Positions 3,384 to 57,284 of a DNA stretch of 64,000 nucleotides are shown here, in pieces (the first letter of the stretch is position 1; every line of letters starts with the position of its first letter). Position numbers and translations under genes: made by a program. The notes beneath the pieces are model-generated. The model saw nothing but the letters and a program-made list of their open reading frames with translations. It ran no database searches and had not been told where the DNA came from. Where the stretch lies: contig CBDEUS010000002.1 of the NCBI GenBank assembly GCA_965243395.1, positions 1,184,001 through 1,248,000 on the forward strand, given 5' to 3'. This DNA comes from Gammaproteobacteria bacterium. Lineage in GTDB: Bacteria > Pseudomonadota > Gammaproteobacteria > UBA4575.

Positions 3384-4574
<1,191 letters not shown>

Positions 4575-12368: not shown

Positions 12369-12422
12369 AGACCTTAAAGAATATTACTTATTGCAAATGT
12401 AATCAGTTGAACTGGAGACATA

Positions 12423-19922: not shown

Positions 19923-21113
<1,191 letters not shown>

Positions 21114-21170
21114 CAAGGTCGTAGATTCCTTTATTTAGAGCCATTATTAAGTTAGAGAAGAGGTAAAAAT

Positions 21171-21485: not shown

Positions 21486-21600
21486 TCAGCCTGATAAGTA
21501 CAACTAGAGCAAAACAGATTAACGAACAAAAAAATGGCTAAAAATATTGGAAAATATAGCTTTTTGAGTAGATAAAATGGTTTTCTAACCCGCTGATTTT

Positions 21601-21654
21601 TGTGATAATGCACGGCTCACTATGGCCCGGCTATGAGGTAACTCATGCCGGGCC
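21601..21654 (+). promoter_or_regulatory. Putative internal extended -10 promoter and GC-rich leader hairpin upstream of rplC
   Basis: TG-T-GATAAT followed by GCACGGC; hairpin GGCCCGGC-T-ATGAG-GTAA-CTCAT-GCCGGGCC at 21624-21654. Confidence 0.55.
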
Positions 21655-21719
21655 TTGGTTATCCAGGACTATAGAAATCACTATCTCGCCTTATTAGAGC
21701 AGACGAGTATTAACGAATT

Positions 21720-35227: not shown

Positions 35228-35360
35228 TAGTGTAAACAGCTGTGATCTTTAATAAATTTCAATCAGTTAACAAGCGTATTTAAAAATAACATCCAAAATA
35301 CTTGCTGATTCAACTATTTTATATATGTAGAATTTGACAATAAATGTTTATGAGTTGGAC

Positions 35361-38300
35361 ATGAAATTCTTCACAAAATTTAAGATAGCAATAAATTTAC
35401 TTTTAATCTTTTTATTGTTTTCTGCTAATGCGACATATGCAGCAACTATTATCGTATTAGATAGTGAGCCCGGTGATTTTGTTGGTGCAGGCCAATTAAT
35501 AATACGTGATACCACGGATGGCACATTTACTACGATGCGCGCGAACTCAAGCCATGTGAATATTAGAATGAGTGGGACTGGGACTTTTTGGGGGCTAGAT
35601 TTCGAAGCTATAGAAGGTCAAGAGCTAGTTCCTGGAACATATTTAAATGCTACTAGATATCCGTTTAATCCAACAAATGTAAATGGGCTTTCTGTAAGTG
35701 GTGATGGCCGTGGTTGTAATCAACTCTCAGGTCAATTTACCGTACTTGAAGCAGTTTATAATTCGTCTGATGGGTCTGTCCAAAGTTTTGCAGCAGACTT
35801 TGAGCAGCATTGTGAAAATGCTATACCAGCGTTATTTGGGCAAGTACGTTTTAATAGCAATGTGCCACTATCTATTAATGTAGATTATGACTTGTCAATA
35901 AGTAATCTTGCTAGTAAGGAAAACTATCTTGTCGGTGAAGATATTATTTATACCATTGATGTTTCTAATTTACATACTACAGTCGCGAGAGATGTAACTG
36001 TAACTGATAGTTTACCATCAGGCTTAAATTTTATTTCAGTAACACCAAGTATCGGTAACTGCACAGGTGGTATAAATATAACATGCAGTCTTGGGGACCT
36101 TAATCCAGGCGTAAGTGCAAGTATTAATTTAGTCACTAGAGCACAATCTACTGGTAATTTCTTTAATACGGTATCCGTATCTGCAAGTGGTATTAATTTA
36201 AATGATTCAAATGATAACTTCACAGAAGTAGTAACGGTTAATCCCCTTCCATTAACTGAAAATTTATATCCACTCACAGAAAGAAATCATTGGACTTATT
36301 TGCAAGATGGTGGGTTAAATTATACTGAAACGGTTACGGATGTAGGCGTTACATTTAATGGACAAACTACGGTAAGTGTACTTGACTCAGACGGAGATAC
36401 GACTTACTACTCCAATGATCAGAATGGATTATTAGAACATGGATTCAAAGATAATAGTGGAGATATTGCAACACTGACACCACCTGTAAAAATTTTGAAT
36501 GCTCAACCGCAAATTGGAGACATTATAAATAGTGGTGGAACAGCACAATTTAACTTATCGAGTCAGGGTTTAGGTACATTCGATTTTCTCTACACAGCAA
36601 CCTCTGAAGTTCTTGGTGTTGAACAAGTATCTGTACCATTTGGCAGTCTTATTGCTGTCAAAGTACAACTTACTGCAATGATAAGTGGAAATGTTCAAGG
36701 AATCCCTTTTAATGAATCTAGTATTGACACTATATGGTTTGTTGAAGATGTTGGATATGTAAAGAACATAGTTAATGATCAAGATGATTTCTCAACAACA
36801 ACTTTTGAACTCTTTAGTTTTGAAACTTTACCACCACCCCCTACGATTACATCGCCGACCGATGGCTCCACGTTTACGGGAAGCAGCGTGACCTTCATGT
36901 GGGATGCGATGGGCACGCCGGTGAGTGAATGGTGGATCAACTTAGGCAGCACCTTGGGTGGGCGCGACATTCATGTGAGTGGATCGTTGGGCAGTGCCAC
37001 GAGTGTCACGATTAACAACATCCCTGTGGATGGCAGCACAGTGTATGCACGGTTATGGTATCGCAACGGTGGCGGTGCATGGCAATCACAAGACTTTACC
37101 TATACCGCATTTACCGGACCGCCTCCGCAACTTCCTACGATTACATCGCCGACCGATGGCTCCACGTTTACGGGAAGCAGCGTGACCTTCATGTGGGATG
37201 CGATGGGCACGCCGGTGAGTGAATGGTGGATCAACTTAGGCAGCACCTTGGGTGGGCGCGACATTCATGTGAGTGGATCGTTGGGCAGTGCCACGAGTGT
37301 CACGATTAACAACATCCCTGTGGATGGCAGCACAGTGTATGCACGGTTATGGTATCGCAACGGTGGCGGTTCATGGCAATCACAAGACTTTACCTATACC
37401 GCATTTACCGGACCGCCTCCGCAACTTCCTACGATTACATCGCCGACCGATGGCTCCACGTTTACGGGAAGCAGCGTGACCTTCATGTGGGATGCGATGG
37501 GCACGCCGGTGAGTGAATGGTGGATCAACTTAGGCAGCACCTTGGGTGGGCGCGACATTCATGTGAGTGGATCGTTGGGCAGTGCCACGAGTGTCACGAT
37601 TAACAATATCCCTGTGGATGGCAGCACAGTGTATGCACGGTTATGGTATCGCAACGGTGGCGGTGCATGGCAATCACAAGACTTTACCTATACCGCATTT
37701 ACCGGACCGCCTCCGCAACTTCCTACGATTACATCGCCGACCGATGGCTCCACGTTTACGGGAAGCAGCGTGACCTTCATGTGGGATGCGATGGGCGCGC
37801 CGGTGAGTGAATGGTGGATCAACTTAGGCAGCACCTTGGGTGGGCGCGACATTCATGTGAGTGGATCGTTGGGCAGTGCCACGAGTGTCACGATTAACAA
37901 CATCCCTGTGGATGGCAGCACAGTGTATGCACGGTTATGGTATCGCAACGGTGGCGGTGCATGGCAATCACAAGACTTTACCTATACCGCATTTACCGGA
38001 CCGCCTCCGCAACTTCCTACGATTACATCGCCGACCGATGGCTCCACGTTTACGGGAAGCAGCGTGACCTTCATGTGGGATGCGATGGGCACGCCGGTGA
38101 GTGAATGGTGGATCAACTTAGGCAGCACCTTGGGTGGGCGCGACATTCATGTGAGTGGATCGTTGGGCAGTGCCACGAGTGTCACGATTAACAACATCCC
38201 TGTGGATGGCAGCACAGTGTATGCACGGTTATGGTATCGCAACGGTGGCGGTGCATGGCAATCACAAGACTTTACCTATACCGCATTTACCGGACCGCCT

Positions 38301-38984
38301 CCGCAACTTCCTACGATTACATCGCCGACCGATGGCTCCACGTTTACGGGAAGCAGCGTGACCTTCATGTGGGATGCGATGGGCACGCCGGTGAGTGAAT
38401 GGTGGATCAACTTAGGCAGCACCTTGGGTGGGCGCGACATTCATGTGAGTGGATCGTTGGGCAGTGCCACGAGTGTCACGATTAACAACATCCCTGTGGA
38501 TGGCAGCACAGTGTATGCACGGTTATGGTATCGCAACGGTGGCGGTTCATGGCAATCACAAGACTTTACGTACACTGCTGCTACTATATTTGTTGGCGTT
38601 TATTCAATGAGTGGGACCAATGTAGATAGCGGTTGTCAAGATCCGTCAGATAATGGCGTGACAACTCTAGCAGGTAGTTTCTCGATACCGAGTCAATCCA
38701 GCAATGCATTTGTAGGGACTTTTGATGTAGAGACACTTGATGGAATTGTACTTTCGCAGACAGGAATAAGTATTACTGGCACATTTAATTCAAATTATAC
38801 ATCTGCAACTAACATTTCAGGTACCTATGTATTCGAGGCAAATGAAGGTGTAAATTTGTTAGCGAGAAACGAAGGGACATTTACGGCAAACTTAATCGGA
38901 AATCAATTCTCAATCAGTTACTCAGGTATGGATACAGTAGGCGATGTTTGTCAAAGTACTGGGGGATTATCAGGGCGTACTTAA
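35361..38984 (+). CDS. Secreted multidomain surface/adhesin-like protein (signal peptide, DUF11-like domain, six tandem Ig/FN3-like repeats)
   Basis: ATG at 35361 gives a Sec-type signal peptide (MKFFTKFK...ANATYA). DUF11-like DLSISN..VGEDIIYTIDVSN..VTVTDSLPSGL. Six 98-aa beta-rich repeats with Pro-rich linkers. Confidence 0.8.
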   Translation: MKFFTKFKIAINLLLIFLLFSANATYAATIIVLDSEPGDFVGAGQLIIRDTTDGTFTTMRANSSHVNIRMSGTGTFWGLDFEAIEGQELVPGTYLNATRYPFNPTNVNGLSVSGDGRGCNQLSGQFTVLEAVYNSSDGSVQSFAADFEQHCENAIPALFGQVRFNSNVPLSINVDYDLSISNLASKENYLVGEDIIYTIDVSNLHTTVARDVTVTDSLPSGLNFISVTPSIGNCTGGINITCSLGDLNPGVSASINLVTRAQSTGNFFNTVSVSASGINLNDSNDNFTEVVTVNPLPLTENLYPLTERNHWTYLQDGGLNYTETVTDVGVTFNGQTTVSVLDSDGDTTYYSNDQNGLLEHGFKDNSGDIATLTPPVKILNAQPQIGDIINSGGTAQFNLSSQGLGTFDFLYTATSEVLGVEQVSVPFGSLIAVKVQLTAMISGNVQGIPFNESSIDTIWFVEDVGYVKNIVNDQDDFSTTTFELFSFETLPPPPTITSPTDGSTFTGSSVTFMWDAMGTPVSEWWINLGSTLGGRDIHVSGSLGSATSVTINNIPVDGSTVYARLWYRNGGGAWQSQDFTYTAFTGPPPQLPTITSPTDGSTFTGSSVTFMWDAMGTPVSEWWINLGSTLGGRDIHVSGSLGSATSVTINNIPVDGSTVYARLWYRNGGGSWQSQDFTYTAFTGPPPQLPTITSPTDGSTFTGSSVTFMWDAMGTPVSEWWINLGSTLGGRDIHVSGSLGSATSVTINNIPVDGSTVYARLWYRNGGGAWQSQDFTYTAFTGPPPQLPTITSPTDGSTFTGSSVTFMWDAMGAPVSEWWINLGSTLGGRDIHVSGSLGSATSVTINNIPVDGSTVYARLWYRNGGGAWQSQDFTYTAFTGPPPQLPTITSPTDGSTFTGSSVTFMWDAMGTPVSEWWINLGSTLGGRDIHVSGSLGSATSVTINNIPVDGSTVYARLWYRNGGGAWQSQDFTYTAFTGPPPQLPTITSPTDGSTFTGSSVTFMWDAMGTPVSEWWINLGSTLGGRDIHVSGSLGSATSVTINNIPVDGSTVYARLWYRNGGGSWQSQDFTYTAATIFVGVYSMSGTNVDSGCQDPSDNGVTTLAGSFSIPSQSSNAFVGTFDVETLDGIVLSQTGISITGTFNSNYTSATNISGTYVFEANEGVNLLARNEGTFTANLIGNQFSISYSGMDTVGDVCQSTGGLSGRT
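36840..38569 (+). repeat. Intragenic tandem repeat, 294-bp unit, about 5.9 copies
   Basis: Units start CCTACGATTACATCGCCG at 36840, 37134, 37428, 37722, 38016 and 38310; only a few single-base differences seen. Confidence 0.97.
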
Positions 38985-42081: not shown

Positions 42082-42519
42082 ATGGCTAGAGGCGTGAATA
42101 AAGTTATATTGGTTGGAAATCTAGGGCAGGACCCTGAAATAAAATATATGCCTAGTGGGCAAGCGGTATGTAATATCAGTATTGCAACTACTGAATCTTG
42201 GAATGATAAAACGTCTGGGGAAAAAGTAGAAAAAACGGAGTGGCACCGTGTAGTTTTTTTTCGTCGTTTAGCTGAAATTGCGGGAGAGTATTTACGCAAA
42301 GGTTCACAGGTTTATGTAGAAGGACGTTTGCAAACAAGAAAATGGCAGGATCAAAGTGGAAACGACCGCTATACTACAGAAATTGTTGCAAATGAAATGC
42401 AAATGTTAGGCGGAAAAGGCTCAGGTGTTGCTTCAATGCCTGAATCAAACCCAACTTCGCAACCTGAACCTGTGGCAGCTGGATCATCTGATGATTTTGA
42501 TGATGATATTCCATTTTAA
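42082..42519 (+). CDS. ssb: Single-stranded DNA-binding protein
   Basis: [18 protein letters not shown]-terminal DDDIPF. Confidence 0.99.
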
Positions 42520-42599
42520 AGTTATAGCCTTAGAAGTTAGTCATTAAAAACTTAGACTCATTCTTCGGATACAATTAACAGTTTATAAAACAGTCTAAA

Positions 42600-43538
42600 T
42601 TATATTTGCTGTCTGGAAAGTAAGCGTCTTGCAACGGACCGCAAGTATCGCCCAGAATTTAAATCAAATTTCTTTTTAAATGCTGGTGGTAAACACCGGC
42701 AAAGAATAGATTCAATAGCGTAGGAAATACGTAAAGTACGCAATCCCTGGCGGTAAGCTTTGCGATCAGAAATGCTGTAGTGCTTTCCCATCAATTGAAA
42801 AGCTTGAATGGAAATCTTAACAGTTTCTTTTCTAGGTGCTCCACTGGATAGTCCCTGTGAATGTATTCGGTAAAATCCCATTACCTCATCGATAAAGCCA
42901 TAATCACCATGTAATAGATTGCCTGTATGTAAAAGTATGTCACCAATAAGTGACTTCTTGAACCAATCCGGAGCAACATTCTCACGATTACGAAACACAA
43001 CACTCAGTACTGGTGAAAAAACTCCATAGCGTAGTAAGTAATCGAGAGAATATTGCTCTCTACGTATTGGTGGGTACCCCATATCTGAACATATGATTTC
43101 GTCGTTTTCGTTTACTTGCCCAACTTTATGATAACAGCCTGATAAGTTCGGATGATTTTCAAGATAACTTATCTGTTTTTGTAGTTTTTGATCATTACTC
43201 CAAAAATCATCGCCATCACATAAAGCGATATACTTTCCACGACATGCTCTTAATGTCTCAATATAATTAAATTGCCAGTTGCCGATGCAACCCTCGCGAT
43301 TCGGATCGTCACGTTTGCGTTCAAAAAGCCGAATGGTATCGGGATAGTTGCTCGCATACTTTTGACAAACTTCCCTTGTTCCATCATTTGAGTCGTCTTC
43401 ACCTAAGCATATTTCAAAACTAAAGTTGGTTTTTTGACAAAGGATACTATCGAGACATTTACTGATGTAGTTGACATGATTATAAGTGATGACCCACACG
43501 CTCACTAAAGGTGGATCGTTCTTTAGATGAACATTCAT
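42600..43538 (-). CDS. Family 2 glycosyltransferase
   Basis: VSVWVITYNH, EDDSNDGT, GKYIALCDGDDFW, YRIH. Confidence 0.92.
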   Translation of the reverse strand: MNVHLKNDPPLVSVWVITYNHVNYISKCLDSILCQKTNFSFEICLGEDDSNDGTREVCQKYASNYPDTIRLFERKRDDPNREGCIGNWQFNYIETLRACRGKYIALCDGDDFWSNDQKLQKQISYLENHPNLSGCYHKVGQVNENDEIICSDMGYPPIRREQYSLDYLLRYGVFSPVLSVVFRNRENVAPDWFKKSLIGDILLHTGNLLHGDYGFIDEVMGFYRIHSQGLSSGAPRKETVKISIQAFQLMGKHYSISDRKAYRQGLRTLRISYAIESILCRCLPPAFKKKFDLNSGRYLRSVARRLLSRQQI

Positions 43539-43541
43539 TAA

Positions 43542-44525
43542 TTATTTGAAAAGGGGGGCTTTTCGTGACAATGCGTTTAAAATACGTTTGGCAACGGGAA
43601 TAGGGCCATGTGAACAACCTAAAAGAAGCATTTCTCTACACCTGCCGCGTAAAGTTACGCGTTCGTCTAGTCTTGAATAATAACGTTTAATAACGCGTAT
43701 TGCGCGCTGTTTGTTTAGTTCTCCATTATTTTGTATAAATCGTTGATTAACTGGACGTCTGTCTTGTACTTCGGGTAAGCGTCGCCAATCATCGTAGTAT
43801 GATAGGTATTGCTCAGGTTTAGAAGGAATCATAACTTTTAATCCATTATATTCGATATCTTTAAGAGGAAAAATATCTGTGTAACGATGATGTTGCATGG
43901 TATTTTCACGAGTAAAGTTATTAACGCAAAGTTCTTCAGGTTTGCAATTTTCACTTCTTGCCAGCAATTCAGCAGCATAGTCATTATAATAGTAATTTCT
44001 GAATTCTTTTTTTTCCTTACGGCTTAATGTTGGTTGTGAAGAATTTATCTTAAATCCGGTCGAGCAGTATGTCAGCATTTGGGACATTTCTCGTTCTTTA
44101 GAAATATCTTCAGGGGTATTTGGAAAAATTTTCATTGGAGCAATATCTATTCGCACTGGTAACCACCCTGGCGCCGCCATTACAAGCACTTGTAACGAGC
44201 CGAAGTATTCTGCCCATAATCGACCACTGTCCTCAGGATAAAAGAAAAGCAAGCGGCTATCATCTAATTTACAACGTTTGTGGAGAAGAGGGATAAGCTG
44301 ATCAAAATCTTCTTTGGGGACACATATATCCATATCGTCATCCCATGGAATAGGCTTTCCATGTCTCATTGCACCAATTAACGTACCACCATCCAACCAA
44401 TAAGAGAGATTATTTTCACGACAAACTTCGTCGACAATTGCTAATTGACCTAACAGCTGTTCTTGCATCTCCTCTAAGCCATCAATCGTGTAATACTCCA
44501 ATCCATCTTTGTTGATTAATTTCAT
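43542..44525 (-). CDS. licD: LicD/fukutin-family phosphotransferase
   Basis: YWLDGGTLIGAMRHGKPIPWDDDMDI and C-terminal IFPLK..IP..PEQYL..Y.DW..LP. Confidence 0.88.
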   Translation of the reverse strand: MKLINKDGLEYYTIDGLEEMQEQLLGQLAIVDEVCRENNLSYWLDGGTLIGAMRHGKPIPWDDDMDICVPKEDFDQLIPLLHKRCKLDDSRLLFFYPEDSGRLWAEYFGSLQVLVMAAPGWLPVRIDIAPMKIFPNTPEDISKEREMSQMLTYCSTGFKINSSQPTLSRKEKKEFRNYYYNDYAAELLARSENCKPEELCVNNFTRENTMQHHRYTDIFPLKDIEYNGLKVMIPSKPEQYLSYYDDWRRLPEVQDRRPVNQRFIQNNGELNKQRAIRVIKRYYSRLDERVTLRGRCREMLLLGCSHGPIPVAKRILNALSRKAPLFK

Positions 44526-44528
44526 TAT

Positions 44529-45206
44529 TTAAGTTTTTGGTTGGCCGAAATACTCTGATTGTTTTTCGCGATTGAAATTTCTATACAAGTAATCTAGATC
44601 TTGTGGCGTGTCAATTTCAAAGACATCAACAACTTCCGCAGCAATTGGCAACATTTTCTCAACTTCGTTATAAACAAAATTTGCATGTGGTGAAATTTGT
44701 AAATCTGAAAAATATGCAATTCCACACCATTCAAATTTATCAGGGGGACTTCTGCGGAAAGCTTCAATCATCTGTTGTTTTTTATTTAGCTCAACGAACA
44801 CTGCTTCTTGTGTAAATGATTCAGAAATACCGATTAGATTTCGGTGTTTACTGCAACTTTCTACAAAATGGAGAAACGAGTCTGGCTCAACATACATATC
44901 TCCATCTATAGATAAATAAGGTTCTGTGAGATCACGTGTTGCTAAATATAGACTGTATGCATTTGTGCTATTTGCATAGTTAGGATTCCTTACGAAAGTA
45001 ACGTCGGGGCGAAGTGCACGAACATAGTCAATGACTTGTTGTTCCTTAAAACCAACTACTATTCTGATATCAGGTACATTATTGAGAAGTTGCAACAAGT
45101 AGTAAATTAGACAGTGACCTTCAAGCTCTACCAAACATTTTGGTATATCTAGCCCTAACCTGTTACCTAATCCTGCAGCGGATATTACAGCATGTTTTAT
45201 TTCCAT
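44529..45206 (-). CDS. Nucleotidyltransferase (LicC-like cytidylyltransferase; PA1090/CD0242-like)
   Basis: AVISAAGLGNRLG..IPKCL, NPNY..TNAYSL, DGD, EIDTPQDL. Confidence 0.85.
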   Translation of the reverse strand: MEIKHAVISAAGLGNRLGLDIPKCLVELEGHCLIYYLLQLLNNVPDIRIVVGFKEQQVIDYVRALRPDVTFVRNPNYANSTNAYSLYLATRDLTEPYLSIDGDMYVEPDSFLHFVESCSKHRNLIGISESFTQEAVFVELNKKQQMIEAFRRSPPDKFEWCGIAYFSDLQISPHANFVYNEVEKMLPIAAEVVDVFEIDTPQDLDYLYRNFNREKQSEYFGQPKT

Positions 45207-45209
45207 TGC

Positions 45210-45818
45210 TTAAGGATTCCTTAATGTTGTTAATATGTTTAATAGACCATTTGGATGATAAGTTACAAAATCTGCCATTTTAATCAGAGTTTCAACCGGG
45301 TCATGAACTCCGCCATAAGCTATGCGTATGTCTGCTGCCTCAAATAGGGGAGTATCATTCATACCATCTCCTACAGCTACAATCTCGTCATATGAACTTT
45401 TTAATTCTTGAATGGCTTCGGACTTATTAATAATACGTGCAACACCCAGAAGTTTGTCATCCTCCCATTCTGCATCAGAGCTGAAAACTTTGCATTTCAA
45501 TTTAGGTTTAAGATCATCAATCCAAACATTCAGGTTGCCCGTAACTACGTAACAGTCAGTTTGGTTAGCATGTAAAAATTCTAAAAGACATTGTTCTATG
45601 GGTACGCCGGATATAATACGACGTACTTTAGAAATAGGAACTTCCGATAACAACCTCACACGTAAGCGAAACGAGTTCTCAAAAGGCAACAATCCTTCCA
45701 TTGTTGCTCGAGTCAAAGTGGAAATTTCTTCGAATAAGCCAATTTCTTTGGCTAGCATTGGAAGTATTTCCTCTGAAGTAAGTGTTCCATCCAGATCAAA
45801 ACAAAATGCTCTTTTCAT
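45210..45818 (-). CDS. HAD-IB phosphoserine-phosphatase-like enzyme (PA1089/CD0241-like)
   Basis: FDLDGT, SFRLRVRLL cap region, VTGN, GDGMND. Confidence 0.85.
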   Translation of the reverse strand: MKRAFCFDLDGTLTSEEILPMLAKEIGLFEEISTLTRATMEGLLPFENSFRLRVRLLSEVPISKVRRIISGVPIEQCLLEFLHANQTDCYVVTGNLNVWIDDLKPKLKCKVFSSDAEWEDDKLLGVARIINKSEAIQELKSSYDEIVAVGDGMNDTPLFEAADIRIAYGGVHDPVETLIKMADFVTYHPNGLLNILTTLRNP

Positions 45819-45825
45819 AAGAGAT

Positions 45826-46488
45826 TTATCCTTCAGATATTGCTTTGGTGCAGACGAATAAAAAATGACGAGTGTTAGGCCACTTATTTAACCAGTCGGG
45901 GAATATGTCGTGAAGCTCAACTGTTTCAAATCCAGAATCTAATATTCGTTGCTTTTCGTCCTCGTAATAGCGGTACTCGGCGTAATAGTTAGTATCAAGT
46001 TCTTCAGAAAATCGATCAACAATGACATCTTCCTTTATTCCACAGTGGATGTGCGCAATAAAATGGCCTCCAGGTTTAGTCATATTGAAAATGTTTTGAT
46101 ACAAATCTTGAATAAAACTCCCTTCTAGACATTGAATTACACCGGTTGCAAGAACCAAGTCAAATTGTTTATATAAACGAAATCCTATGATATCGGCATT
46201 GATAAGTTCGAGTTTTTTTGACTGTTGAATATATTGTGAAAAATTCTGAAACTTTTCCACTGCAGTAATATGGCCTACTAATTCGACAAGTTTGTTTACA
46301 ACTAATCCAGTGCCACTACCTAAATCGAGAACTGATAAATCAGGCTTAAGATACGGTCTTAGAAATTCGATTTCTAAATCTGAATAGTCACCTCGCTTAT
46401 TGCGCGTTTGTTGTGGGTCTGTGATCCGATTTGCAAGATTTGCCCAGTATTCTTTTGATATGGTTTTTTCATTTGCTTTCATAATCAT
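45826..46488 (-). CDS. Class I SAM-dependent methyltransferase
   Basis: VLDLGSGTG, FDLVLA, KPGG. Confidence 0.88.
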   Translation of the reverse strand: MIMKANEKTISKEYWANLANRITDPQQTRNKRGDYSDLEIEFLRPYLKPDLSVLDLGSGTGLVVNKLVELVGHITAVEKFQNFSQYIQQSKKLELINADIIGFRLYKQFDLVLATGVIQCLEGSFIQDLYQNIFNMTKPGGHFIAHIHCGIKEDVIVDRFSEELDTNYYAEYRYYEDEKQRILDSGFETVELHDIFPDWLNKWPNTRHFLFVCTKAISEG

Positions 46489-46523
46489 TAATCTTATGTC
46501 AGTTTATTATTTACCTTGAAGAT

Positions 46524-47798
46524 TTATATAGGGTTATGAGATTTTATATTTATTTTATAAATACTTATAAAAATATATGCGAATAACAACATCATTGCAT
46601 TTAATATTGCGACCGTATACACAACTCCTTCTACAGCAAAAAATTTAGCCGCAAAACTGTAGAAGATTAAGGCCAGTAGTGCAAAAGCTATTTGGATAAC
46701 AGCTAATTTTATTGTTTTCATTTCGGCACGAAGTTTTAATAATAGTTGTTGTGTTATACCATAAAATCCACCTGCCATGATTAGCCATGGGAATATCCAG
46801 CTATACGAGCGAAAATGCTCTCCCATTAGTAATTTAGCCAAAAAGGGGTGTGCAAAAAAAGCAATTATAACAACAAGTAAAACAGTAGCTAATGTTAATG
46901 TACTCAACCGGAACGTGCTCACCATAGCTTCGTCAATAGATTCAATAGTTTTTTCATAAACAATTGGAGCTAAAAATGTTAGTAGAATTCCACTTATGAT
47001 TAGCATCGGAATAAATGCTAATTGATGATAGGCCCCATAGATACCTACATCAGCAATATCGCAAAACCATCCTAATACCCATAGAGGCGACATCAAAAAA
47101 ATCCAGACACCAAAACCTACTATTAGCAAAGGTATAGCATAATTAATAAAAGACTTGCTTAATTGTTTTTGCTTCTCAAAATTTTTATTTTCTTGATTAT
47201 TGCGTAGAAGCTGAAAGCGTACATATAAAATGTGAAAGCAGGCGATAATACCAGCACCTAACAAAAACCCACTCATTGCGAATTCCGCTGATGCGGATCC
47301 AAAATAAATAAAAAAAGCAGCTATACTAAATCGTGTTAGTTCAAAAGAAACACGAAATATTGCGCTGACTTGACGTCGTCTTGCGCCTTCTACTAATCTG
47401 ACTCCAACACCTGAAATGAGCAGTACTATAGAAAAGCCAAATGTTAGCAAATATAAGGGATCTATTACTGGCCAATTTATGTAGCTGACCATTATCGCAC
47501 CTATTGCACAAATTATTGCGCTACCTACCCAGAAACGAAATATAATTTTTCGTAAATCACTTAGCCTATCTTCTGCACGATAAATCGAATAGAAACGCAT
47601 CGATGCACCTCCGACTGCATGCCCTACGACTTGGTCGAAAACTCCGGCAAGACTTATCATCAATGCAAGCCGTCCATATTCAACATGTGAGAGAAAGGTT
47701 GTGAGGAAGCGTGTTCCAGCTAAAACTACACTTATTGAAAAAATCGTACCGAATGCAACCCATAACATCTCACTGTTCATCCGCTTAGCAACTAGCAT
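46524..47798 (-). CDS. Wzx-like polysaccharide flippase (MOP superfamily)
   Basis: About 12 hydrophobic segments; TRFLTTFLSHVEYG and DVGIYG patterns. Start uncertain (47834, 47798 or 47780). Confidence 0.75.
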   Translation of the reverse strand: MLVAKRMNSEMLWVAFGTIFSISVVLAGTRFLTTFLSHVEYGRLALMISLAGVFDQVVGHAVGGASMRFYSIYRAEDRLSDLRKIIFRFWVGSAIICAIGAIMVSYINWPVIDPLYLLTFGFSIVLLISGVGVRLVEGARRRQVSAIFRVSFELTRFSIAAFFIYFGSASAEFAMSGFLLGAGIIACFHILYVRFQLLRNNQENKNFEKQKQLSKSFINYAIPLLIVGFGVWIFLMSPLWVLGWFCDIADVGIYGAYHQLAFIPMLIISGILLTFLAPIVYEKTIESIDEAMVSTFRLSTLTLATVLLVVIIAFFAHPFLAKLLMGEHFRSYSWIFPWLIMAGGFYGITQQLLLKLRAEMKTIKLAVIQIAFALLALIFYSFAAKFFAVEGVVYTVAILNAMMLLFAYIFISIYKINIKSHNPI

Positions 47799-48617
47799 AA
47801 TATTTTTTATATAACAAATTCTTAGAATAGGCACATAATTGAATACGTATAGTTTTCAACTATTTCGAAACACAATTTACATTGATTCGAGATTAAGCTT
47901 ATATGGGCTGTTTTGTGGAATATAAATAAAGAATATAGAAACCGGAAATTGTAACATTACTGTGTCATTCATGAAAATCGCATAAACACCTAAATTATAA
48001 ATTGATTCACACAGTAGCGTGCATAGATAAAGTTAAATTAAAGTTTATATACAACGCGGTTCCACTAATAAGGGCTAAATATATTCTAGAAAATATTCAT
48101 TTGGTTCATGTGCAGATTTGGGGCCATCCCACTCATTAATAATTTAATTTAGAAGATATATAACCCAAACTAATTAAACATTCAGGTTTAATATTCTTTG
48201 TACAGTCTAGTACTGGATTTACATGACTGATAAAAATTATTTTGCTATAATATTTTGAATCGGTTGGAGATATTTAAGCATTTGCTTAGGTATGTCATCT
48301 ATGCGAAATGTGTTCGTAAAGCTAGACGTTCATTTTTAAACAGCTTGAGAAAATATTTTACAACAATATTCTGAAAAGAATTTAGTTTTAAAATAGCAAG
48401 TGCGTAATTAAGGTTGTTACACACTTTAAAGTAAATTAAGTGTCTTCGGGGACATCGTTTAAATAAATTCAACAAAATCGAGTGGCAATGAATGTGCTTC
48501 GTTGTCCTTGCGCGTCATTGTATTTTTTAACAAGGAATGTGTTAGAGCTTTATTAAATAGGCATGAGTAAATTTAGTAATCCAGTATATAGAAATATACA
48601 GATATTAATGTAGCCAC

Positions 48618-51602
48618 ATGACCGACAGTACTACTACTGATTTTTTTATTCCTAAGGTTCTTTGGGTTTTGTATTTCTGTTTTGCAACTTGTATTGCTCT
48701 TATCTTTCAGAAACTTGTATTACCTATGGTCCCATCATTGCATGCGGGAAGTGGTCTGCTAACTAACGATGCAATATATTTTCATACAATAGCAATAAAT
48801 TTAGCTGACCAAATTCGAGATGACGGTTGGTCTAATTGGTCACTGTGGCCAGCTCAAGGATGCGGGGCGAATGTTGCAGACTTGTCAATATTATATGTTT
48901 TTTTTGAACCTGACCCATCATTAGCTATTCCTATAAATGCTATATTGCACGCAAGTAGTGGTGTACTAATCTACTTAATTGCACATGCAATTTTTCCAGG
49001 ACGTGTTGGCAAATATGCTGGAATCTTTAGTTCAGTCCTTTTTATTGTGTTTCCTTCTAGTCTGAATTGGTATGCGCAGCTTCACAAAGATGGCTACGCA
49101 ATTTTAGGTATTTTAATTGTACTTTATTCATGGGTGCAGTGGACAGCACAAGAATTTAGTGTATCTAGGATTATTTTATTTCTAATTGGGAACATCGCAG
49201 GATGTATTTTAATTTTATCTGTTCGCCCTTATGCATTAGATGTGTTGTTTCTTGCTGTGGCTATATTACTCTTAATTTGTTTTTTTAATATTATTTTAAA
49301 TAAAAACAATATATGGATTAAATTTATAGGAGGTATATTCGCACTATTATTTATTGGGTTGTTTGTATTGTCAGTTCATACGCATAAATTAGGCAATAAT
49401 ATAAATTCCTTTATTTTATCTACTGGCTATAGTTTTAGTAGCGATAACTCTAGTGACGCTAGTTCTAGTAGTGATAGTTCTAGTGGTAATAGTTCTAGTA
49501 GCGAAAATTCTAGTAGCGATGATCAAGTAACGAATAATTGTCCAATCCAAAATGGGTGGCAATGGCAATCAGAAGATCTGGTTCCGGAAAAAATAGATAA
49601 TTTTGCTTATACAGCAGCAAAGGTGAGACTAATATCTATTTGTACAACTTATGAATCCAACTCCATTTACGATAAGCATAAAGCTCCAGATAATATTTTA
49701 AGTCTAGTTGGATACCTGCCAAGAGCAATTCAAATCGGATTATTTGCGCCATTTCCTAATACTTGGTTAAAAGAGATATCAATAACTAAAATAATTGGTT
49801 GGATTGAAATATTTGCATGGTATTTATTAGTTCCCGGAATAATTTATTTATTGTGTCAACGTCAGACTCAACAGATTTGGCTAGTATTAAGTTTTGCATT
49901 AGTTTTTTTGCTTGTGTATAGCTACGTTACTCCAAATCTAGGATCACTGCATCGAATTCGATATCCATTCATAATGCTATTGATGTTACTAGGTGCTTTA
50001 GGTTGGTGTCATTTAATTTTAAAACATTTTTACAGAGAGAACTTCAAGAAAAATATAAAGCAATTCTATCTTGATAATACAGGTGTATCTGCACCGGGAC
50101 GTGCAAAAATTCTTTATGCGGGTTTTTCAGTAGTTGGGTTCACTGCATTTTCTTTTTTATTGCTCTTTTATCGCGATGTTTTGATGGGCCAAAAATTTGG
50201 AGTTGGAACTGAACTTGATGCATTCTTTTTGGCCATGTTGTTACCTATGTTTATTGTAAATGTTTTTAGTATCCCTTTAGGTTCTGCTCTTATCCCGGTT
50301 TACCATAAGTTAAATACATCCTCTCAAAGAGATGCAGAATCGATGCTTTCAACATTGCTGTTCTATTCACTGTCTGGGCTAATATTAATTGGTGGCATGT
50401 TGCTCATTTTAGGAGAGACGATATATCCGAGTATAGTGAGCGATTTAGAAGAAGTTACAATTAGGAGAACATTAGATTTACTGCCTATCGCAGTACTAAT
50501 TCTAGTTTTAAGTATTGTAGTTATATTAGGTAATGCTGTACTCAATGCGAGACAAATTTACAGTTGGCCTGCAATTTTTCAAATTGTTGTTCCAGTTTGT
50601 GCAATCATATCTTTACTCGCATTTGGCAAGGAATTTAATGCAACTAGCGTTGCTGCAGGAATGCTTATTGGACAAATTATTAACTTAATTTTAGTAGTCT
50701 ACTTGTTATATAAAGATAATTTTAGATTAAAACTCAGTTTTCCAAATAAATTTCGAGGTGAAAATTATAACTCATTGTGGCAACTTTATGGTGCACTTGC
50801 TGTAGCTGCGTTATTTGTAAGTGCAGCTGCGGTGATTGATAATATTATGGCTTCTAGCCTTGGAGAAGGCAGTATAGGGGTTTATTCATTAGGAAATAAG
50901 GTAATAATATTTGTAACCGGTGTTATTGGCGCTGGTGTTACTTCAGTTGTATTACCACGATTTTCCGCTTTATTGTCACAAGGAAATATTGAGGGTTGTA
51001 GACGAGATCTTGCTTTTTTTATTTACATAGGAACGGCTATAACTATTCCAGCTGGATTAATATTGTTCGGATTATGTGATGATGTTGTACGTTTAATTTT
51101 TAAAGGCGAAATGATGACTATAGAAGATGCTGACGAAATTGGGCGTGTTGCTATATTTGGGGTTATACAACTTCCATTCTTTGTTTCACATGCCTTGCTA
51201 ATTAAGTTTGCTAATGCGAAACAAAAGGGAAGAATAGTTGTAATTACAGCCGCATTTGGTCTTTTGTTAAATATTGTATTAAATATTTTCTTAATGCGTG
51301 AAATTGGTGTAGCAGGTCTTGCGCTTGCAACAACGTTGTCTATGTTAGTGACCAGTTTTATCCTTTTAGCTATTATTATGAGACTCGGTTATCTCAGACC
51401 TCTCGAAATCGTATTAATCTCACTTTCGTGGGGGCTTTATTTAACTACTATATTATGTATATATTTTCGAAGTTATGCTGGAGTCGTAGTTTCTATTATT
51501 GCAATGATAATATTATTATGGGAAATTTGGATGATAAATCGAGAAAATGCTTCAAAAAGTGGGCCTAGGTTTTACTGGTTAAAAAACAGCTTTAGTTCTT
51601 AA
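48618..51602 (+). CDS. Fusion protein: N-terminal GT-C/Wzy-like membrane domain plus C-terminal MurJ/MviN-like flippase
   Basis: N-half: NDAIYFH after TM1, QLHKD, NLGSLHRIRYP. C-half: FYRDVLMGQKFGVGTELDAFFLA..LP, ASSLGEGSI, GVAGLALATTLS. Confidence 0.7.
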   Translation: MTDSTTTDFFIPKVLWVLYFCFATCIALIFQKLVLPMVPSLHAGSGLLTNDAIYFHTIAINLADQIRDDGWSNWSLWPAQGCGANVADLSILYVFFEPDPSLAIPINAILHASSGVLIYLIAHAIFPGRVGKYAGIFSSVLFIVFPSSLNWYAQLHKDGYAILGILIVLYSWVQWTAQEFSVSRIILFLIGNIAGCILILSVRPYALDVLFLAVAILLLICFFNIILNKNNIWIKFIGGIFALLFIGLFVLSVHTHKLGNNINSFILSTGYSFSSDNSSDASSSSDSSSGNSSSSENSSSDDQVTNNCPIQNGWQWQSEDLVPEKIDNFAYTAAKVRLISICTTYESNSIYDKHKAPDNILSLVGYLPRAIQIGLFAPFPNTWLKEISITKIIGWIEIFAWYLLVPGIIYLLCQRQTQQIWLVLSFALVFLLVYSYVTPNLGSLHRIRYPFIMLLMLLGALGWCHLILKHFYRENFKKNIKQFYLDNTGVSAPGRAKILYAGFSVVGFTAFSFLLLFYRDVLMGQKFGVGTELDAFFLAMLLPMFIVNVFSIPLGSALIPVYHKLNTSSQRDAESMLSTLLFYSLSGLILIGGMLLILGETIYPSIVSDLEEVTIRRTLDLLPIAVLILVLSIVVILGNAVLNARQIYSWPAIFQIVVPVCAIISLLAFGKEFNATSVAAGMLIGQIINLILVVYLLYKDNFRLKLSFPNKFRGENYNSLWQLYGALAVAALFVSAAAVIDNIMASSLGEGSIGVYSLGNKVIIFVTGVIGAGVTSVVLPRFSALLSQGNIEGCRRDLAFFIYIGTAITIPAGLILFGLCDDVVRLIFKGEMMTIEDADEIGRVAIFGVIQLPFFVSHALLIKFANAKQKGRIVVITAAFGLLLNIVLNIFLMREIGVAGLALATTLSMLVTSFILLAIIMRLGYLRPLEIVLISLSWGLYLTTILCIYFRSYAGVVVSIIAMIILLWEIWMINRENASKSGPRFYWLKNSFSS
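49431..49520 (+). repeat. Degenerate 15-bp tandem repeat, six copies, encoding a Ser/Asp-rich loop
   Basis: agttttagtagcgat / aactctagtgacgct / agttctagtagtgat / agttctagtggtaat / agttctagtagcgaa / aattctagtagcgat. Confidence 0.85.
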
Positions 51603-51743
51603 GTTAAAAACAATGGTATTTAATATACCCTACATACATTAAGATAAAATCTTATAACAGTTTACTCAAATTTATTGTTTTATATTAAAAACGAAATTTA
51701 AATTTAACTAATTACAAAGATAAATTGAAACATTGCTAGACAC

Positions 51744-52889
51744 ATGAAGATTGCAATAGTTGTATCTAGCCCAATGACAATCAAAGCATTCTTGCATGAT
51801 CTAATCATACGTCTGTCCGAGATCTCTGAAGTTACTGTTGTAGCAAATATTTCAAATCCTAAAGATCTAGTAGTGCTTGAAAATAGTGCAAAAATTGTTA
51901 GTGTCAAAATTGTCCGTAAGATTGCACTTTTTACAGATGTGAAAGCACTGTTAACATTATTGAGTTTATTCAGGAGAAATAAGTATGATCTAGTTTATTC
52001 AGTTACTCCAAAAGCAGGGTTACTAGCAATGACTGCTAGTTTTTTAGCTCGGATTAATTGCAGAATTCATATATTTACCGGACAAGTTTGGGTAATGAAG
52101 CGTGGAGTAAGGCGATTATTTTTAAAAATTGTGGATAAACTAATTGTAAGATTAGCTACCAACGTATTAGCAGATAGTATCAGCCAAAGTAAATTCTTAA
52201 TTAACGAAAATGTAGTTAATTCAAATAAGATTGCAGTATTGGCTAATGGTTCAATTAGTGGGGTTAACTTAAAACGATTTTGTAAGGACGAAAATATTAG
52301 AAATGAAGTTCGCGAGCAATTAAATATTGATAAAAATGAGTTAGTATTTTTATTTCTTGGTAGGCTTGATCCTGATAAGGGGATACTTGATTTAGTAGAT
52401 GCATTTAGTCTGATCTATAATCGATATAAATTTGTCAGGCTTGTTATTGTTGGGCCTGATGAAGCAGGAATATGCAGTCAAATTGATTCGAAAATTCCGT
52501 CTAAAACTAATAATATAATTTTCGTAGATTTTACAAATCGACCAGAGTCGTACATGAATGCGGCTGATGTTATTTGTCTCCCCAGTTATAGAGAAGGTTT
52601 TGGTAGTGTTGTGATTGAAGCAGCTGCAATAGGTATACCTGCAATAGGTAGCAATATTTACGGTATAAGAGATGCAATAGAAGATGGAGTAACTGGCATT
52701 TTATATCCTCCTCGAGATAAAAAGGCACTATATTCAGCAATGCAAAAACTTATTTTAGAACCGGAGACAAGAATACGATTTGGTGTTGCAGCACAAAAAC
52801 GTGCCAAGCGTTTATTTTCACAGAATCTTGTAACTTCATCTTATATAGACTATTTCAAACAAGCAGTAGATAGTTGTATTTCTCGATGA
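51744..52889 (+). CDS. Family 4 glycosyltransferase (CapM/PglA-like)
   Basis: TPKAGLL, FLGRL..DKG, LPSYREGFG..VIEA. Confidence 0.92.
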   Translation: MKIAIVVSSPMTIKAFLHDLIIRLSEISEVTVVANISNPKDLVVLENSAKIVSVKIVRKIALFTDVKALLTLLSLFRRNKYDLVYSVTPKAGLLAMTASFLARINCRIHIFTGQVWVMKRGVRRLFLKIVDKLIVRLATNVLADSISQSKFLINENVVNSNKIAVLANGSISGVNLKRFCKDENIRNEVREQLNIDKNELVFLFLGRLDPDKGILDLVDAFSLIYNRYKFVRLVIVGPDEAGICSQIDSKIPSKTNNIIFVDFTNRPESYMNAADVICLPSYREGFGSVVIEAAAIGIPAIGSNIYGIRDAIEDGVTGILYPPRDKKALYSAMQKLILEPETRIRFGVAAQKRAKRLFSQNLVTSSYIDYFKQAVDSCISR

Positions 52890-53476
52890 AACGAATATTC
52901 GACATAATTATTACTGTTATACTTTTTGTATTGCTAAGCTTTATATTCATTGTCATTGCTTTTCTGATACTCATTACTCTCGGCAAACCCATATTGTTTA
53001 CTCAAATGCGTCCAGGTCTTAATGGCGAGCTTTTCAAGATTTATAAATTTCGAACCATGAAAATAAAATATGACAAAAATGGAATGCCATTGCATGATAG
53101 TCAAAGACTTACACGATTTGGTGCTTGGTTAAGACGCACCAGCTTGGATGAATTACCAACTTTATGGAATGTTCTGTGTGGTCATATGAGTTTAGTAGGG
53201 CCAAGACCTTTGCTAATTGAGTATCTTTCTTTATATTCGCCTGAACAAAAGCGAAGGCATAACGTTAAGCCAGGAATAACAGGCTGGGCGCAAGTTAATG
53301 GTAGAAATGCAGTCAGCTGGGAAGAGAAATTCAAACTAGATGTATGGTATGTGGAAAACCATAATTTTTGTTTGGACCTTAAGATTTTATTTTTAACTAT
53401 AATTGCTGTGTTTAAATCTACGGGAATAACCCAAGAAGGGCATGTAACAACAGAAAAGTTTCGAGGTTCAAATTGA
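52886..53476 (+). CDS. pglC: Monotopic phosphoglycosyl transferase (PglC-type initiating sugar transferase)
   Basis: MKRIFD, YKFRTM, SLDELP, MSLVGPRP, KPGITGWAQVNGRN; ATG overlaps the upstream stop. Confidence 0.88.
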   Translation: MKRIFDIIITVILFVLLSFIFIVIAFLILITLGKPILFTQMRPGLNGELFKIYKFRTMKIKYDKNGMPLHDSQRLTRFGAWLRRTSLDELPTLWNVLCGHMSLVGPRPLLIEYLSLYSPEQKRRHNVKPGITGWAQVNGRNAVSWEEKFKLDVWYVENHNFCLDLKILFLTIIAVFKSTGITQEGHVTTEKFRGSN

Positions 53477-54102
53477 AACCCAAGTTATTAATTGTTGGAG
53501 CAGGAGGGCATGGGTCTGTAGTTGCTGATGCTGCTATTGAACAGAACATATGGTCTGAAATTGCTTTTTTAGATGATAATGTAAATGAGCCTAGCATAGT
53601 GAATGACATACCTGTTTTAGGGGTAATTGCTGATATACATAAGTATTCTGGTCAATTTGGAGATTTGGCAATAGCTATTGGCGATAATATTCTTAGGATG
53701 AAACTAATAGAAGAATTTATAAATAGTGACTTTTGTTTACCGGTCATTTCTCACCCAAAGGCAATTGTTAGTAAAAATTCAGAAATTGGGCCAGGCACAT
53801 TTTTAGCAGCGAACGCTGTAATCAATGCAGGGTCCACGTTGGGTAAAGGTTGCATAATAAACACTGCTGCAACTGTTGATCATGACAATATTTTGTCAGA
53901 TGGTGTGCATGTATCTCCAGGTGCTCACCTTGGCGGAAATGTGGTAGTCGGGAAGTGTAGCTGGATTGGAATTGGCGCGAGTATTAGGGAACAAGTTTCC
54001 ATAGGCGAGAATGTAATCATTGGTGCAGGTGCAGCAGTCGTGGAGAACGTAGGTAATTCTTTGCAAATGCTGGGTGTACCAGCCCGCCCAAATGAGAAGT
54101 AA
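53473..54102 (+). CDS. pglD: PglD/NeuD-family sugar acetyltransferase
   Basis: GAGGHG, FLDD, AIGDN..R, hexapeptide repeats with VDHD, GVPAR; TTG start. Confidence 0.85.
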   Translation: MKPKLLIVGAGGHGSVVADAAIEQNIWSEIAFLDDNVNEPSIVNDIPVLGVIADIHKYSGQFGDLAIAIGDNILRMKLIEEFINSDFCLPVISHPKAIVSKNSEIGPGTFLAANAVINAGSTLGKGCIINTAATVDHDNILSDGVHVSPGAHLGGNVVVGKCSWIGIGASIREQVSIGENVIIGAGAAVVENVGNSLQMLGVPARPNEK

Positions 54103-54104
54103 AG

Positions 54105-55337: not shown

Positions 55338-55361
55338 AAATTTTAATTTTATCTTTTAATT

Positions 55362-57245: not shown

Positions 57246-57284
57246 ATTTATAGGGTATTTGTGGTCAATCTTTGAATAGTTGAA

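Follow-up and report, generated by a model that had tools for sequence, protein, structure and literature searches.

What does a phosphotransferase of the LicD family transfer when it is encoded beside a gene set known from flagellin glycosylation? The question is raised by a stretch of 64,000 nucleotides (the window) from a Gammaproteobacteria bacterium (GenBank assembly GCA_965243395.1, contig CBDEUS010000002.1, positions 1,184,001 to 1,248,000). At 42600-47834 of the window, six minus-strand open reading frames (ORFs) encode, in order of transcription, a Wzx flippase, a methyltransferase (MT), a HAD protein, a nucleotidyltransferase (NT), LicD and a family 2 glycosyltransferase (GT2). The answer we favor, with a probability of roughly 0.6 and on the strength of sequence comparison, is that MT, HAD and NT form a module like the Fta proteins of Clostridioides difficile. 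It would make a cytidine diphosphate (CDP)-linked (N-methyl)hydroxy-amino acid, and LicD would transfer the group onto an undecaprenyl-linked, bacillosamine-type oligosaccharide. The six genes are as follows, with G016 denoting another genome of the same genus.

46524-47834, minus strand: Wzx-type flippase of the MOP family, first gene of the operon (Pfam Polysacc_synt, 42.8 bits; 63% identity to the G016 orthologue)
45826-46488, minus strand: small class I S-adenosylmethionine (SAM) methyltransferase (Pfam Methyltransf_25, 37.5 bits; also Methyltransf_11/12)
45210-45818, minus strand: HAD-IB protein resembling phosphoserine phosphatase (PSP) (Pfam PF12710, 40.5 bits; PF00702, 40.6 bits)
44529-45206, minus strand: LicC-superfamily nucleotidyltransferase (Pfam NTP_transf_3, 41.9 bits)
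43542-44525, minus strand: LicD-family phosphotransferase (Pfam LicD, 101.4 bits against a cut-off of 22.6, model positions 1-223 of 227)
42600-43538, minus strand: GT2 glycosyltransferase, final gene of the operon (Glycos_transf_2, 69.6 bits; 79% identity in G016)

The preliminary description of this DNA had claimed a tight minus-strand operon with this gene order and 3-7 nt gaps among its last five genes. ORF coordinates, together with Pfam and NCBIfam assignments, bore this out: the gaps are 35 nt between Wzx and MT, 7 nt between MT and HAD, and 3 nt at each of the HAD-NT, NT-LicD and LicD-GT2 junctions. Its operon end at 47798 is a real in-frame ATG and a possible alternative start, but lies 12 codons inside a Wzx ORF that begins with GTG at 47834. 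The genome (2.58 Mb, 100% complete) consists of two contigs, C1 and C2, with the window on C2, and holds LicD in single copy. Base composition gave no signal of recent transfer (operon 37.0% GC, genome 38.6%).

The chemical precedent comes from two flagellin systems, cited here from the available portions of each source. In C. difficile 630, CD0241-CD0244 (ftaABCD) encode a PSP-like HAD, a nucleotidyltransferase, a methyltransferase and a TagF-like phosphotransferase (PMC10714395; bioRxiv 10.64898/2026.02.12.704994). Cells of this organism contain CDP-Thr and CDP-N-methyl-Thr; FtaC methylates CDP-threonine, FtaD transfers the group, and AlphaFold 3 predicts an FtaA-FtaB heterodimer (bioRxiv 10.64898/2026.02.12.704994). 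In Pseudomonas aeruginosa PAO1, PA1088 (MT), PA1089 (PSP-like) and PA1090 (NT) act with PA1091, which combines GT2 and phosphotransferase parts. The phosphodiester-borne group is N-methyl-threonine in C. difficile (bioRxiv 10.64898/2026.02.12.704994) and N,N-dimethyl-threonine in PAO1 (PMC11833859). The preliminary description had named both flagellin trios, correctly according to these three sources.

We assessed homology by proxy, with the Phytopseudomonas straminea locus L049 standing in for PA1088-PA1090 and for the C. difficile proteins. P. straminea is named as carrying a pa1088-1091-like cluster in the available portion of one source (bioRxiv 10.64898/2026.02.12.704994), and the genes of L049 run FlgK, flagellin, MT, HAD, NT, a 1764-aa protein with a TagF-like region, FlaG and FliD. 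The MT-HAD-NT order is common to the window and this flagellin island. The window HAD shares 46% identity with its L049 counterpart over 201 aa (E 2e-66, 190 bits), the NT 40% over 208 aa (E 1e-54, 161 bits) and the MT 28% (E 8e-13), in a match that reaches the C-terminal part past the SAM fold. Across all Pseudomonas-type HADs of the survey described below, the window HAD scored 190-205 bits.

Solved relatives scored far lower. The HAD matched the PSP of M. jannaschii with 74.5 bits, and the NT matched LicC (1JYK) with 45.3 bits (E 6.9e-11) over residues 5-112 only, its N-terminal half, followed by PntC (6PD1) with 29.1 bits as second-best solved match. HAD and NT therefore do not cluster with SerB or with LicC/PntC, and the kinship with the PA1089/PA1090 type that had been suggested for them holds by proxy. 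The MT shared 36% identity (E 2e-43) with its counterpart in a Lachnospiraceae HAD-NT-MT cluster that has the fta gene order and a TagF-like gene; its best solved relatives were plant and Plasmodium phosphoethanolamine N-methyltransferases (E 1.1e-6 for 5WP5, then 5.3e-5 and 0.0062). No C. difficile name appeared among the matches listed (120 of 143) in the homologue search with the Lachnospiraceae MT. ThrH was rejected as the closest relative of the HAD (NCBIfam ThrH, 28.1 bits against a cut-off of 133; no ThrH among PDB matches at E <=0.01). By likeness to these systems, we predict the HAD to be a phosphoserine:hydroxy-amino-acid phosphotransferase (FtaA/PA1089-like), the NT a CTP:phospho-amino-acid cytidylyltransferase (FtaB/PA1090-like) and the MT an N-methyltransferase with an FtaC-like role on the CDP-activated amino acid. 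LicD is predicted to move the phospho-(N-methyl)amino acid from its CDP donor to a sugar of a lipid-linked glycan.

The partners of this module were surveyed in an alignment-based scan for NT homologues, in which each species was represented by a single genome. Among 198 pattern matches, 143 were confirmed as relatives, and the best 80 of these 143 stretches, giving 79 loci, formed the survey set. Because the patterns came from an alignment rich in relatives of the window NT and only the best 80 were kept, loci of LicD type are over-represented and the proportions below are not family-wide. ORFs were matched to the six window proteins, their neighbors were clustered, and 93 cluster representatives were scanned against Pfam; a few unresolved neighbor proteins were rescanned against Pfam at a relaxed threshold. 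Neighbors were scored within 5 kb of the NT in 72 of the 79 loci. The other seven (L036, L038, L040, L042, L044, L046 and L053, all Pseudomonas or Pantoea) went unscored, their NT having been lost to an overlap filter. The nearest locus by NT identity belongs to an uncultured Thiotrichales metagenome-assembled genome (MAG; 83%). Bacteroidota come next with about 50%, and Pseudomonas, Pantoea and Erwinia form a block at 36-44%.

HAD lay within 5 kb of NT in 64 of the 72 scored loci. LicD was near the module in 25 of them, a TagF-like protein in 35, neither in 12 (six of these at a contig end) and both in none. The TagF-like label rests on a 33-member neighbor family that lacks a clear Pfam name and resembles Glyphos_transf weakly (22.8 and 20.5 bits, with the cut-off at 22.1); its profile also matches giant MT-TagF-GT2 proteins in the Pseudomonas-type loci. 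All seven unscored loci show a TagF-like gene or fusion. The comparison of trio-plus-LicD with trio-plus-TagF-like neighborhoods that the preliminary description had proposed was run in this way, and placed the HAD-NT pair with LicD in 25 and with a TagF-type partner in 42 of the 79 loci, with neither in 12 and never with both. LicD directly adjoins a module gene in 21 of its 25 loci; for the TagF-like gene the count is 32 of 35.

The two types of locus also differ in context. Within the stretches surveyed, flagellar genes were found in none of the 25 LicD loci, in 6 of the 35 scored TagF loci and in 6 of the 7 unscored ones. An MT of the window type accompanies LicD in 16 of 25 loci and the TagF-like gene in 6 of 35. 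The complete MT-HAD-NT-LicD block recurs in 11 Bacteroidota loci. Among the window's cluster proteins the Pfam scan found no Glyphos_transf match, and both flagellin genes of the genome lie on C1, the contig without the window. Two earlier suggestions, that the module is uncoupled from flagellin and that LicD stands where relatives have a TagF-like enzyme, thus agree with what we found.

Several surveyed loci had features of their own. In L010, L012, L013, L019, L022 and L029 (Bacteroidota), MT-HAD-NT-LicD is accompanied by a YfhO-like GT-C membrane protein and often by a GDSL hydrolase plus a MatE-like flippase; a YfhO-like gene was present in 6 of 25 LicD-type loci versus 1 of 35 TagF-type loci. 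In Methanobrevibacter (L050, L055, L056), NT, MT and LicD lie close together with no FtaA-like HAD within 5 kb. The giant proteins of 1688-2060 aa (L039:10581-16745, L054:2727-7793 and similar) fuse MT, TagF-like and GT2 (plus GT1-like) domains and follow the NT directly in flagellar islands of Pseudomonas, Pantoea and Erwinia.

We used trees to place these proteins, the NT tree being computed by a quick method, with support from the Shimodaira-Hasegawa-like approximate likelihood ratio test (SH-aLRT); branches are called well supported where they were marked so. In the NT tree (74 rows), the window and the Thiotrichales MAG group with 11 LicD loci of Bacteroidota and a single locus at a contig end, 14 rows in all (SH-aLRT 92, not marked). 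The Pseudomonas-type rows form a separate, well-supported clade, and a third well-supported clade of 25 rows holds loci ordered HAD-NT-MT. The well-supported branches force at least three changes of the LicD label. Near-identical NTs can be paired with either transferase, as in L061 (LicD) and L062 (TagF-like), and likewise in L067 and L077. Because the label changes repeatedly and near-identical NTs occur with either partner, we read LicD and the TagF-like proteins as two transferase families that would be interchangeable on one and the same donor.

The MT tree (67 rows) divides into two methyltransferase families (99, well supported). The window MT sits in a 13-row, all-LicD clade (99, well supported) within a family that also holds the MTs of HAD-NT-MT clusters; the MT of the Pseudomonas islands belongs to the other family. 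Gene fusions tie the module together further. HAD and NT are fused in three MAGs (412-417 aa; L076:9395-10633, L079:254-1507 and L085:9377-10630), and in a Polaromonas MAG a 622-aa protein joins HAD, NT and an MT of the window type (L069:9383-11251).

Clues to the substrate came from the HAD and from neighboring genes. HAD residues D8, D10, E17, M40, F46 and R53 align with D11, D13, E20, M43, F49 and R56 of the PSP structure 1F5S, and all of these but M40 are invariant in 24 family members drawn from all three clades. The 1F5S residues aligned with the invariant five are ones that we take to bind phosphoserine, through its carboxylate and amine, in PSP. Phosphoserine should be available, since the genome encodes SerC (454.8 bits against a cut-off of 443.6). 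Near the module, 21 of 72 loci have an Asp/Glu-racemase-family gene (PF01177), among them L016, L066:4965-5702 and L068. Five LicD-type loci have one, and in L016, from Brumimicrobium salinarum, it directly precedes MT-HAD-NT-LicD; ORF calls and Pfam revealed none in the window. In L021, an ATP-grasp gene of the L-amino-acid-ligase type directly follows the NT. The racemase neighbors hint at variants of the decoration built on D- or allo-amino acids. Read together from sequence, the racemases, the amino-acid ligase, the HAD residues and SerC favor an alpha-amino acid as the substrate.

The HAD could also have been a housekeeping SerB, an identity that we rejected. It exceeds the NCBIfam HAD-SF-IB subfamily cut-off (75.1 bits versus 45) and falls under that of the SerB equivalog TIGR00338 (about 100.5-101.4 bits versus 144.15), with the genome's next best protein at 32.5 bits. 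Nothing PSP-like scored above 40 bits in three genomes of the genus that lack the cassette (100%, 100% and 94% complete); the HAD is thus part of the cassette and not of the lineage's housekeeping complement. Proteins with PSP-like scores of 78-101 bits were confined to the cassette (G000, G016, G037). The genus apparently has no canonical SerB (nothing over the TIGR00338 cut-off in the window's own genome, G008, G009 or G019), although the window's own genome has SerC.

The acceptor is suggested by the genes around the operon. Its left flank is formed by ssb (42082-42519) and uvrA, and the divergent right arm of the island consists of the following.

47835-48617, no strand: intergenic spacer between the two divergent arms (783 bp, 29.4% GC; presumed promoters)
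48618-51602, plus strand: 994-aa membrane protein, C-terminal half a MurJ-like flippase (Pfam MurJ, 157.4 bits at residues 526-949)
51744-52889, plus strand: GT4 glycosyltransferase (Pfam Glycos_transf_1, 128.9 bits; 56% identity in G016)
52874-53476, plus strand: small PglC-type polyprenyl-phosphate sugar-phosphate transferase, the initiating enzyme (Pfam Bac_transf, 220 bits)
53473-54102, plus strand: PglD/NeuD-type sugar N-acetyltransferase (NCBIfam TIGR03570, 211 bits against a cut-off of 160.8; Pfam PglD_N, 70.5 bits)
54105-55337, plus strand: DegT/PglE-type sugar aminotransferase (Pfam DegT_DnrJ_EryC1, 343.5 bits)
55362-57245, plus strand: PglF/WbpM-type membrane-anchored UDP-HexNAc 4,6-dehydratase, last gene of the island (Pfam Polysacc_synt_2, 401.8 bits; CoA_binding_3, 49.1 bits)

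Beyond the last gene follow miaB (57285), phoH, ybeY, corC and lnt. Of the pgl-like enzymes, the 4,6-dehydratase, the aminotransferase, the N-acetyltransferase and the small initiating transferase of PglC type are all encoded, and Wzx is present as well. By its content the island (42600-57245) resembles a Wzx-dependent pathway whose product would be a short oligosaccharide begun on a 2,4-diacetamido-trideoxyhexose (bacillosamine-type) sugar. We name this sugar tentatively, since PseB, PseC and similar equivalog models score under their cut-offs. The island contains no Wzy_C protein; two are encoded elsewhere in the genome (C2:885662 and C1:167941). Scans found neither promoters in excess of chance (18 sites, 26.4 expected) nor terminators above chance level (4 sites, 3.7 expected).

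The 994-aa protein was considered as a conserved core partner and rejected: it has no homologue in the 79 surveyed loci and is absent from the otherwise syntenic G016 locus. Its N-terminal ~500 aa are polytopic by hydropathy, with a Ser-rich stretch near residues 275-300, and residues 1-511 have no Pfam match. Its language-model features resemble GT-C (PMT_2/GT39/STT3) clusters with a score of 0.97, which we note as a lead only.

These elements suggest the following mechanism. Phosphoserine from SerC would donate its phosphoryl group, and the PSP-like HAD would place it on a hydroxy-amino acid, with L-threonine as the likeliest candidate. In a second step, the NT would condense the phospho-amino acid with CTP to a CDP-amino acid, which the small SAM methyltransferase would N-methylate in a third. 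In the fourth step, LicD would attach the phospho-(N-methyl)amino acid to an oligosaccharide carried on undecaprenyl diphosphate, at the hydroxyl of a sugar, and release CMP. That oligosaccharide would be begun by the PglC-like enzyme on a bacillosamine-type sugar made by the PglF/E/D-like enzymes, extended by GT4 and GT2, and flipped by Wzx. Finally, a ligase or O-oligosaccharyltransferase encoded elsewhere may hand the glycan on. Gene content, gene order, homology and co-occurrence are observed; from them we infer steps one, two and four, the amino acid, its degree of methylation and the acceptor in this organism. Whether the amino acid is threonine specifically is, in our estimate, roughly a toss-up.

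The preliminary description had presented the product as a zwitterionic phosphocholine mimic. In phosphodiester-linked N-methylthreonine, phosphate and carboxylate are negative and the amine is positive, which places the group nearer to a phosphoserine head group than to phosphocholine. We regard this idea as weak, since by that count the net charge would be -1.

Several observations weigh against the proposed route. The window NT falls in a different major clade from the Pseudomonas-type rows and no characterized member is placed around it, so threonine is not bracketed phylogenetically. Of the columns invariant in flagellar-type and third-clade rows, the window clade fails to keep 8 of 42 in the HAD and 8 of 40 in the NT, and at NT position 82 all eight window-clade rows have N and the other 11 rows T. 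The best solved relatives of MT and NT, phosphoethanolamine N-methyltransferases and LicC respectively, would also fit a choline-type product. The bias of the survey toward relatives of the window NT, compounded by keeping the best 80, counts here too. Even for C. difficile, phosphotransfer by the HAD is hypothetical (PMC10714395, in its available portion), and for the LicD-coupled loci the chemistry is deduced wholly from sequence.

The alternative that survives best keeps the logic of the module and changes the amino acid: serine, homoserine, allo- or D-threonine or a related residue would yield a phospho-(N-methyl)Ser-type group. The separate clade of the window NT and the N at position 82 speak for it, as do the PSP-like pocket of the HAD and the racemases of 21 of 72 loci, evidence that substrates of more than one stereochemistry are handled in this family. 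Yet of the columns invariant in the other clades, 34 of 42 in the HAD and 32 of 40 in the NT are also kept by the window clade, the window itself has no racemase, and the only two known structures of the family are both threonine-based (PMC11833859; bioRxiv 10.64898/2026.02.12.704994, available portions). We consider a different amino acid unlikely.

A second alternative, which we rate as less likely still, is de novo synthesis of phosphocholine or N-methyl-phosphoethanolamine. The HAD would supply phosphoethanolamine by phosphoryl transfer, an MT akin to phosphoethanolamine N-methyltransferases would methylate it, an NT akin to LicC or to ethanolamine-phosphate cytidylyltransferase (ECT) would activate it, and LicD would transfer it. 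The best solved relatives of NT and MT are those this route would call for. Phosphothreonine contains the phosphoethanolamine skeleton, so the likeness of the MT to phosphoethanolamine N-methyltransferases fits both readings. The names 'choline kinase' or 'phosphocholine cytidylyltransferase' are attached to NT homologues by some sources, and characterized bacterial LicD enzymes transfer phosphocholine (PMC6697681, available portion). Set against this, the NT scores 161 bits with the flagellin-island NT and only 45 with LicC, where the match covers the N-terminal half alone. The HAD keeps the residues aligned with those that presumably bind carboxylate and amine in PSP, and we know of no route that makes phosphoethanolamine with a PSP-like HAD. 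The racemase and amino-acid-ligase neighbors, one of them in the LicD-type L016, imply an alpha-amino acid. CD0242 is LicC-like as well, yet its pathway makes CDP-threonine (PMC10714395; bioRxiv 10.64898/2026.02.12.704994, available portions). The preliminary description had noted that the cluster lacks a choline kinase (LicA), and this extends to the whole genome, where the best PF01633 match reaches 19.8 bits against a cut-off of 29.

That the genes are neighbors without a shared pathway, with the HAD a plain PSP, the MT a sugar O-methyltransferase and LicD using CDP-glycerol, CDP-ribitol or another donor made elsewhere, is very improbable: the cassette HAD is the best SerB-like protein of a genome with none over the family cut-off, and the LicD family, with FKRP as best solved relative here, uses several CDP-alcohols, but HAD accompanies NT in 64 of 72 loci and is fused to it or to NT and MT in others, the genes are 3-7 nt apart, the three same-genus genomes without the cassette also lack a SerB-like protein above 40 bits, and LicD and TagF-like proteins exclude each other beside the pair (both in 0 of 79 loci). 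The CDP-2-glycerol system (Gtp1-3 with WchX; PMC1391919, available portion) was set aside as a model, the window having no reductase.

The proposed Fta-type route to a CDP-(N-methyl)amino acid that LicD would use is best understood beside the systems it resembles. C. difficile FtaABCD likewise combines a PSP-like HAD, a LicC-like nucleotidyltransferase and a small SAM methyltransferase; we draw this likeness through the Lachnospiraceae relative and the published description. It differs in having the TagF-like FtaD where the window has LicD, in gene order (MT-HAD-NT in the window), and in its acceptor, N-acetylglucosamine on flagellin there and, as predicted, a lipid-linked oligosaccharide in a Wzx pathway here, with no fliC nearby. 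The b-type flagellin island of the PA1088-PA1091 type shares the MT-HAD-NT order, and its P. straminea versions have 46, 40 and 28% identity for HAD, NT and MT. It differs in its TagF-like domain, free or fused to GT2 and MT in giant proteins, and in its place among flagellar genes.

In the Lic pathway, LicC supplies CDP-X as donor, from which LicD attaches phospho-X to a lipid-linked glycan; this takes place at the cytoplasmic face, ahead of flipping. With that pathway (LicA/B/C/D; Streptococcus pneumoniae, Haemophilus influenzae) the window shares a predicted cytidylyltransferase of the LicC superfamily and LicD (PMC6697681, available portion). The window genome differs in lacking choline kinase, its NT matches LicC weakly, it has HAD and MT instead, and X is predicted to be an amino acid. 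In Pnt phosphonate tailoring, the LicC-like PntC activates 2-aminoethylphosphonate (AEP) beside LicD-like transferases for cell-surface glycans (PMC6697681). The donor in the window would be a phosphoester and not a phosphonate, and Pfam and NCBIfam scans of the cluster found no phosphoenolpyruvate (PEP) mutase, decarboxylase or AEP transaminase. Fukutin and FKRP belong to the Pfam family of the window LicD, and FKRP (6KAJ) is its best solved relative (E 6e-7), with only a 39-residue stretch aligned; they use CDP-ribitol donors. TagF, TarL, fukutin and FKRP have been grouped as phosphotransferases without the classical CDP-AP motif (bioRxiv 10.64898/2026.02.12.704994, available portion).

The module itself is known from papers of 2014-2026, and its coupling to LicD in a lipid-linked glycan pathway is the part that appears new. 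Within openly licensed PMC literature and bioRxiv, we found no report of a CDP-amino-acid donor for any member of the LicD family and no publication on an Fta-type module coupled to LicD or to a Wzx pathway. Judged by titles and the opening of abstracts, the papers listed there on glycans with CDP-threonine or N-methylthreonine concerned flagellin of C. difficile or P. aeruginosa, apart from one C. difficile S-layer paper with a single mention. According to the available portion of the most recent source, FtaB homologues are mostly flagellar, with one Methanobrevibacter case mentioned, and LicD is never named (bioRxiv 10.64898/2026.02.12.704994). The preliminary description had spoken of a candidate new glycan-decoration system. 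The coupling to LicD and Wzx is, as far as we found, unpublished; 'new system' is too strong, because MT-HAD-NT-LicD stands in 11 Bacteroidota loci and LicD coupling in 25 of 79.

MT-HAD-NT-LicD ranges over Flavobacteriales, Saprospiraceae, a Thiotrichales-type genus, Melainabacteria, gut Bacteroidales and, without the HAD, Methanobrevibacter. A broader proposal, for which we see evenly balanced odds, is that CDP-amino acids are an undescribed class of donors for the LicD family and that MT-HAD-NT-LicD marks a widespread, hitherto unseen decoration of lipid-linked surface glycans by phosphodiester-linked (N-methyl)threonine or a kindred amino acid, with TagF-like and LicD transferases swapped repeatedly on one donor module. 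If this is true, one donor chemistry would feed a second, unrelated transferase family, that of LicD and fukutin/FKRP, and the donor range of LicD would be widened. Ordinary lipid-linked glycans (O-antigen, lipooligosaccharide, protein O-glycans) would be decorated in many non-flagellar contexts. An amino-acid phosphodiester would join phosphocholine, phosphoethanolamine, aminoethylphosphonate and glycerol or ribitol phosphate as a substituent of surface glycans, and a HAD-NT pair beside LicD would serve as a simple genomic marker for such glycans.

Among close relatives the cassette is rare. An order-level survey found an NT homologue (E <=1e-20) in 3 of 56 genomes: the window's own, one of 14 others of the same genus (83%) and one of another genus (39%). 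At the ssb-miaB site (window 42519-57285; L096-L099), G016 has the window's gene set minus the 994-aa ORF, and G008, G009 and G019 have quite different sugar genes. This site is a hypervariable glycan island in the genus. Because it varies between relatives, we regard the cassette as an accessory, serotype-like module, and the block probably defines a serotype-like surface variant in the genus. In G037, of the same family and another genus (L100, G037:C1:2464000-2483999, about 9771-13787), a weak MT, HAD and NT lie beside miaB/phoH with a TagF-like gene and not LicD. That TagF-like gene was read as two overlapping ORFs (12484-12990 and 12912-13787) and may be frameshifted. In the class of L068, an NT homologue was present in 2 of 399 scored genomes sampled, one being the genome of L068 itself; the second, G316, has HAD-NT with no flagellin, LicD, TagF-like gene or window-type MT nearby.

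Elsewhere in the window, a plus-strand ORF at 35334-38984, just upstream of uvrA, encodes a 1216-aa protein with DUF11 and Big_7 repeats that is probably surface- or adhesin-like. Four tRNA genes lie at 2851-4798, and a 2-kb stretch at 20001-22000 has 49% GC against about 40% around it.

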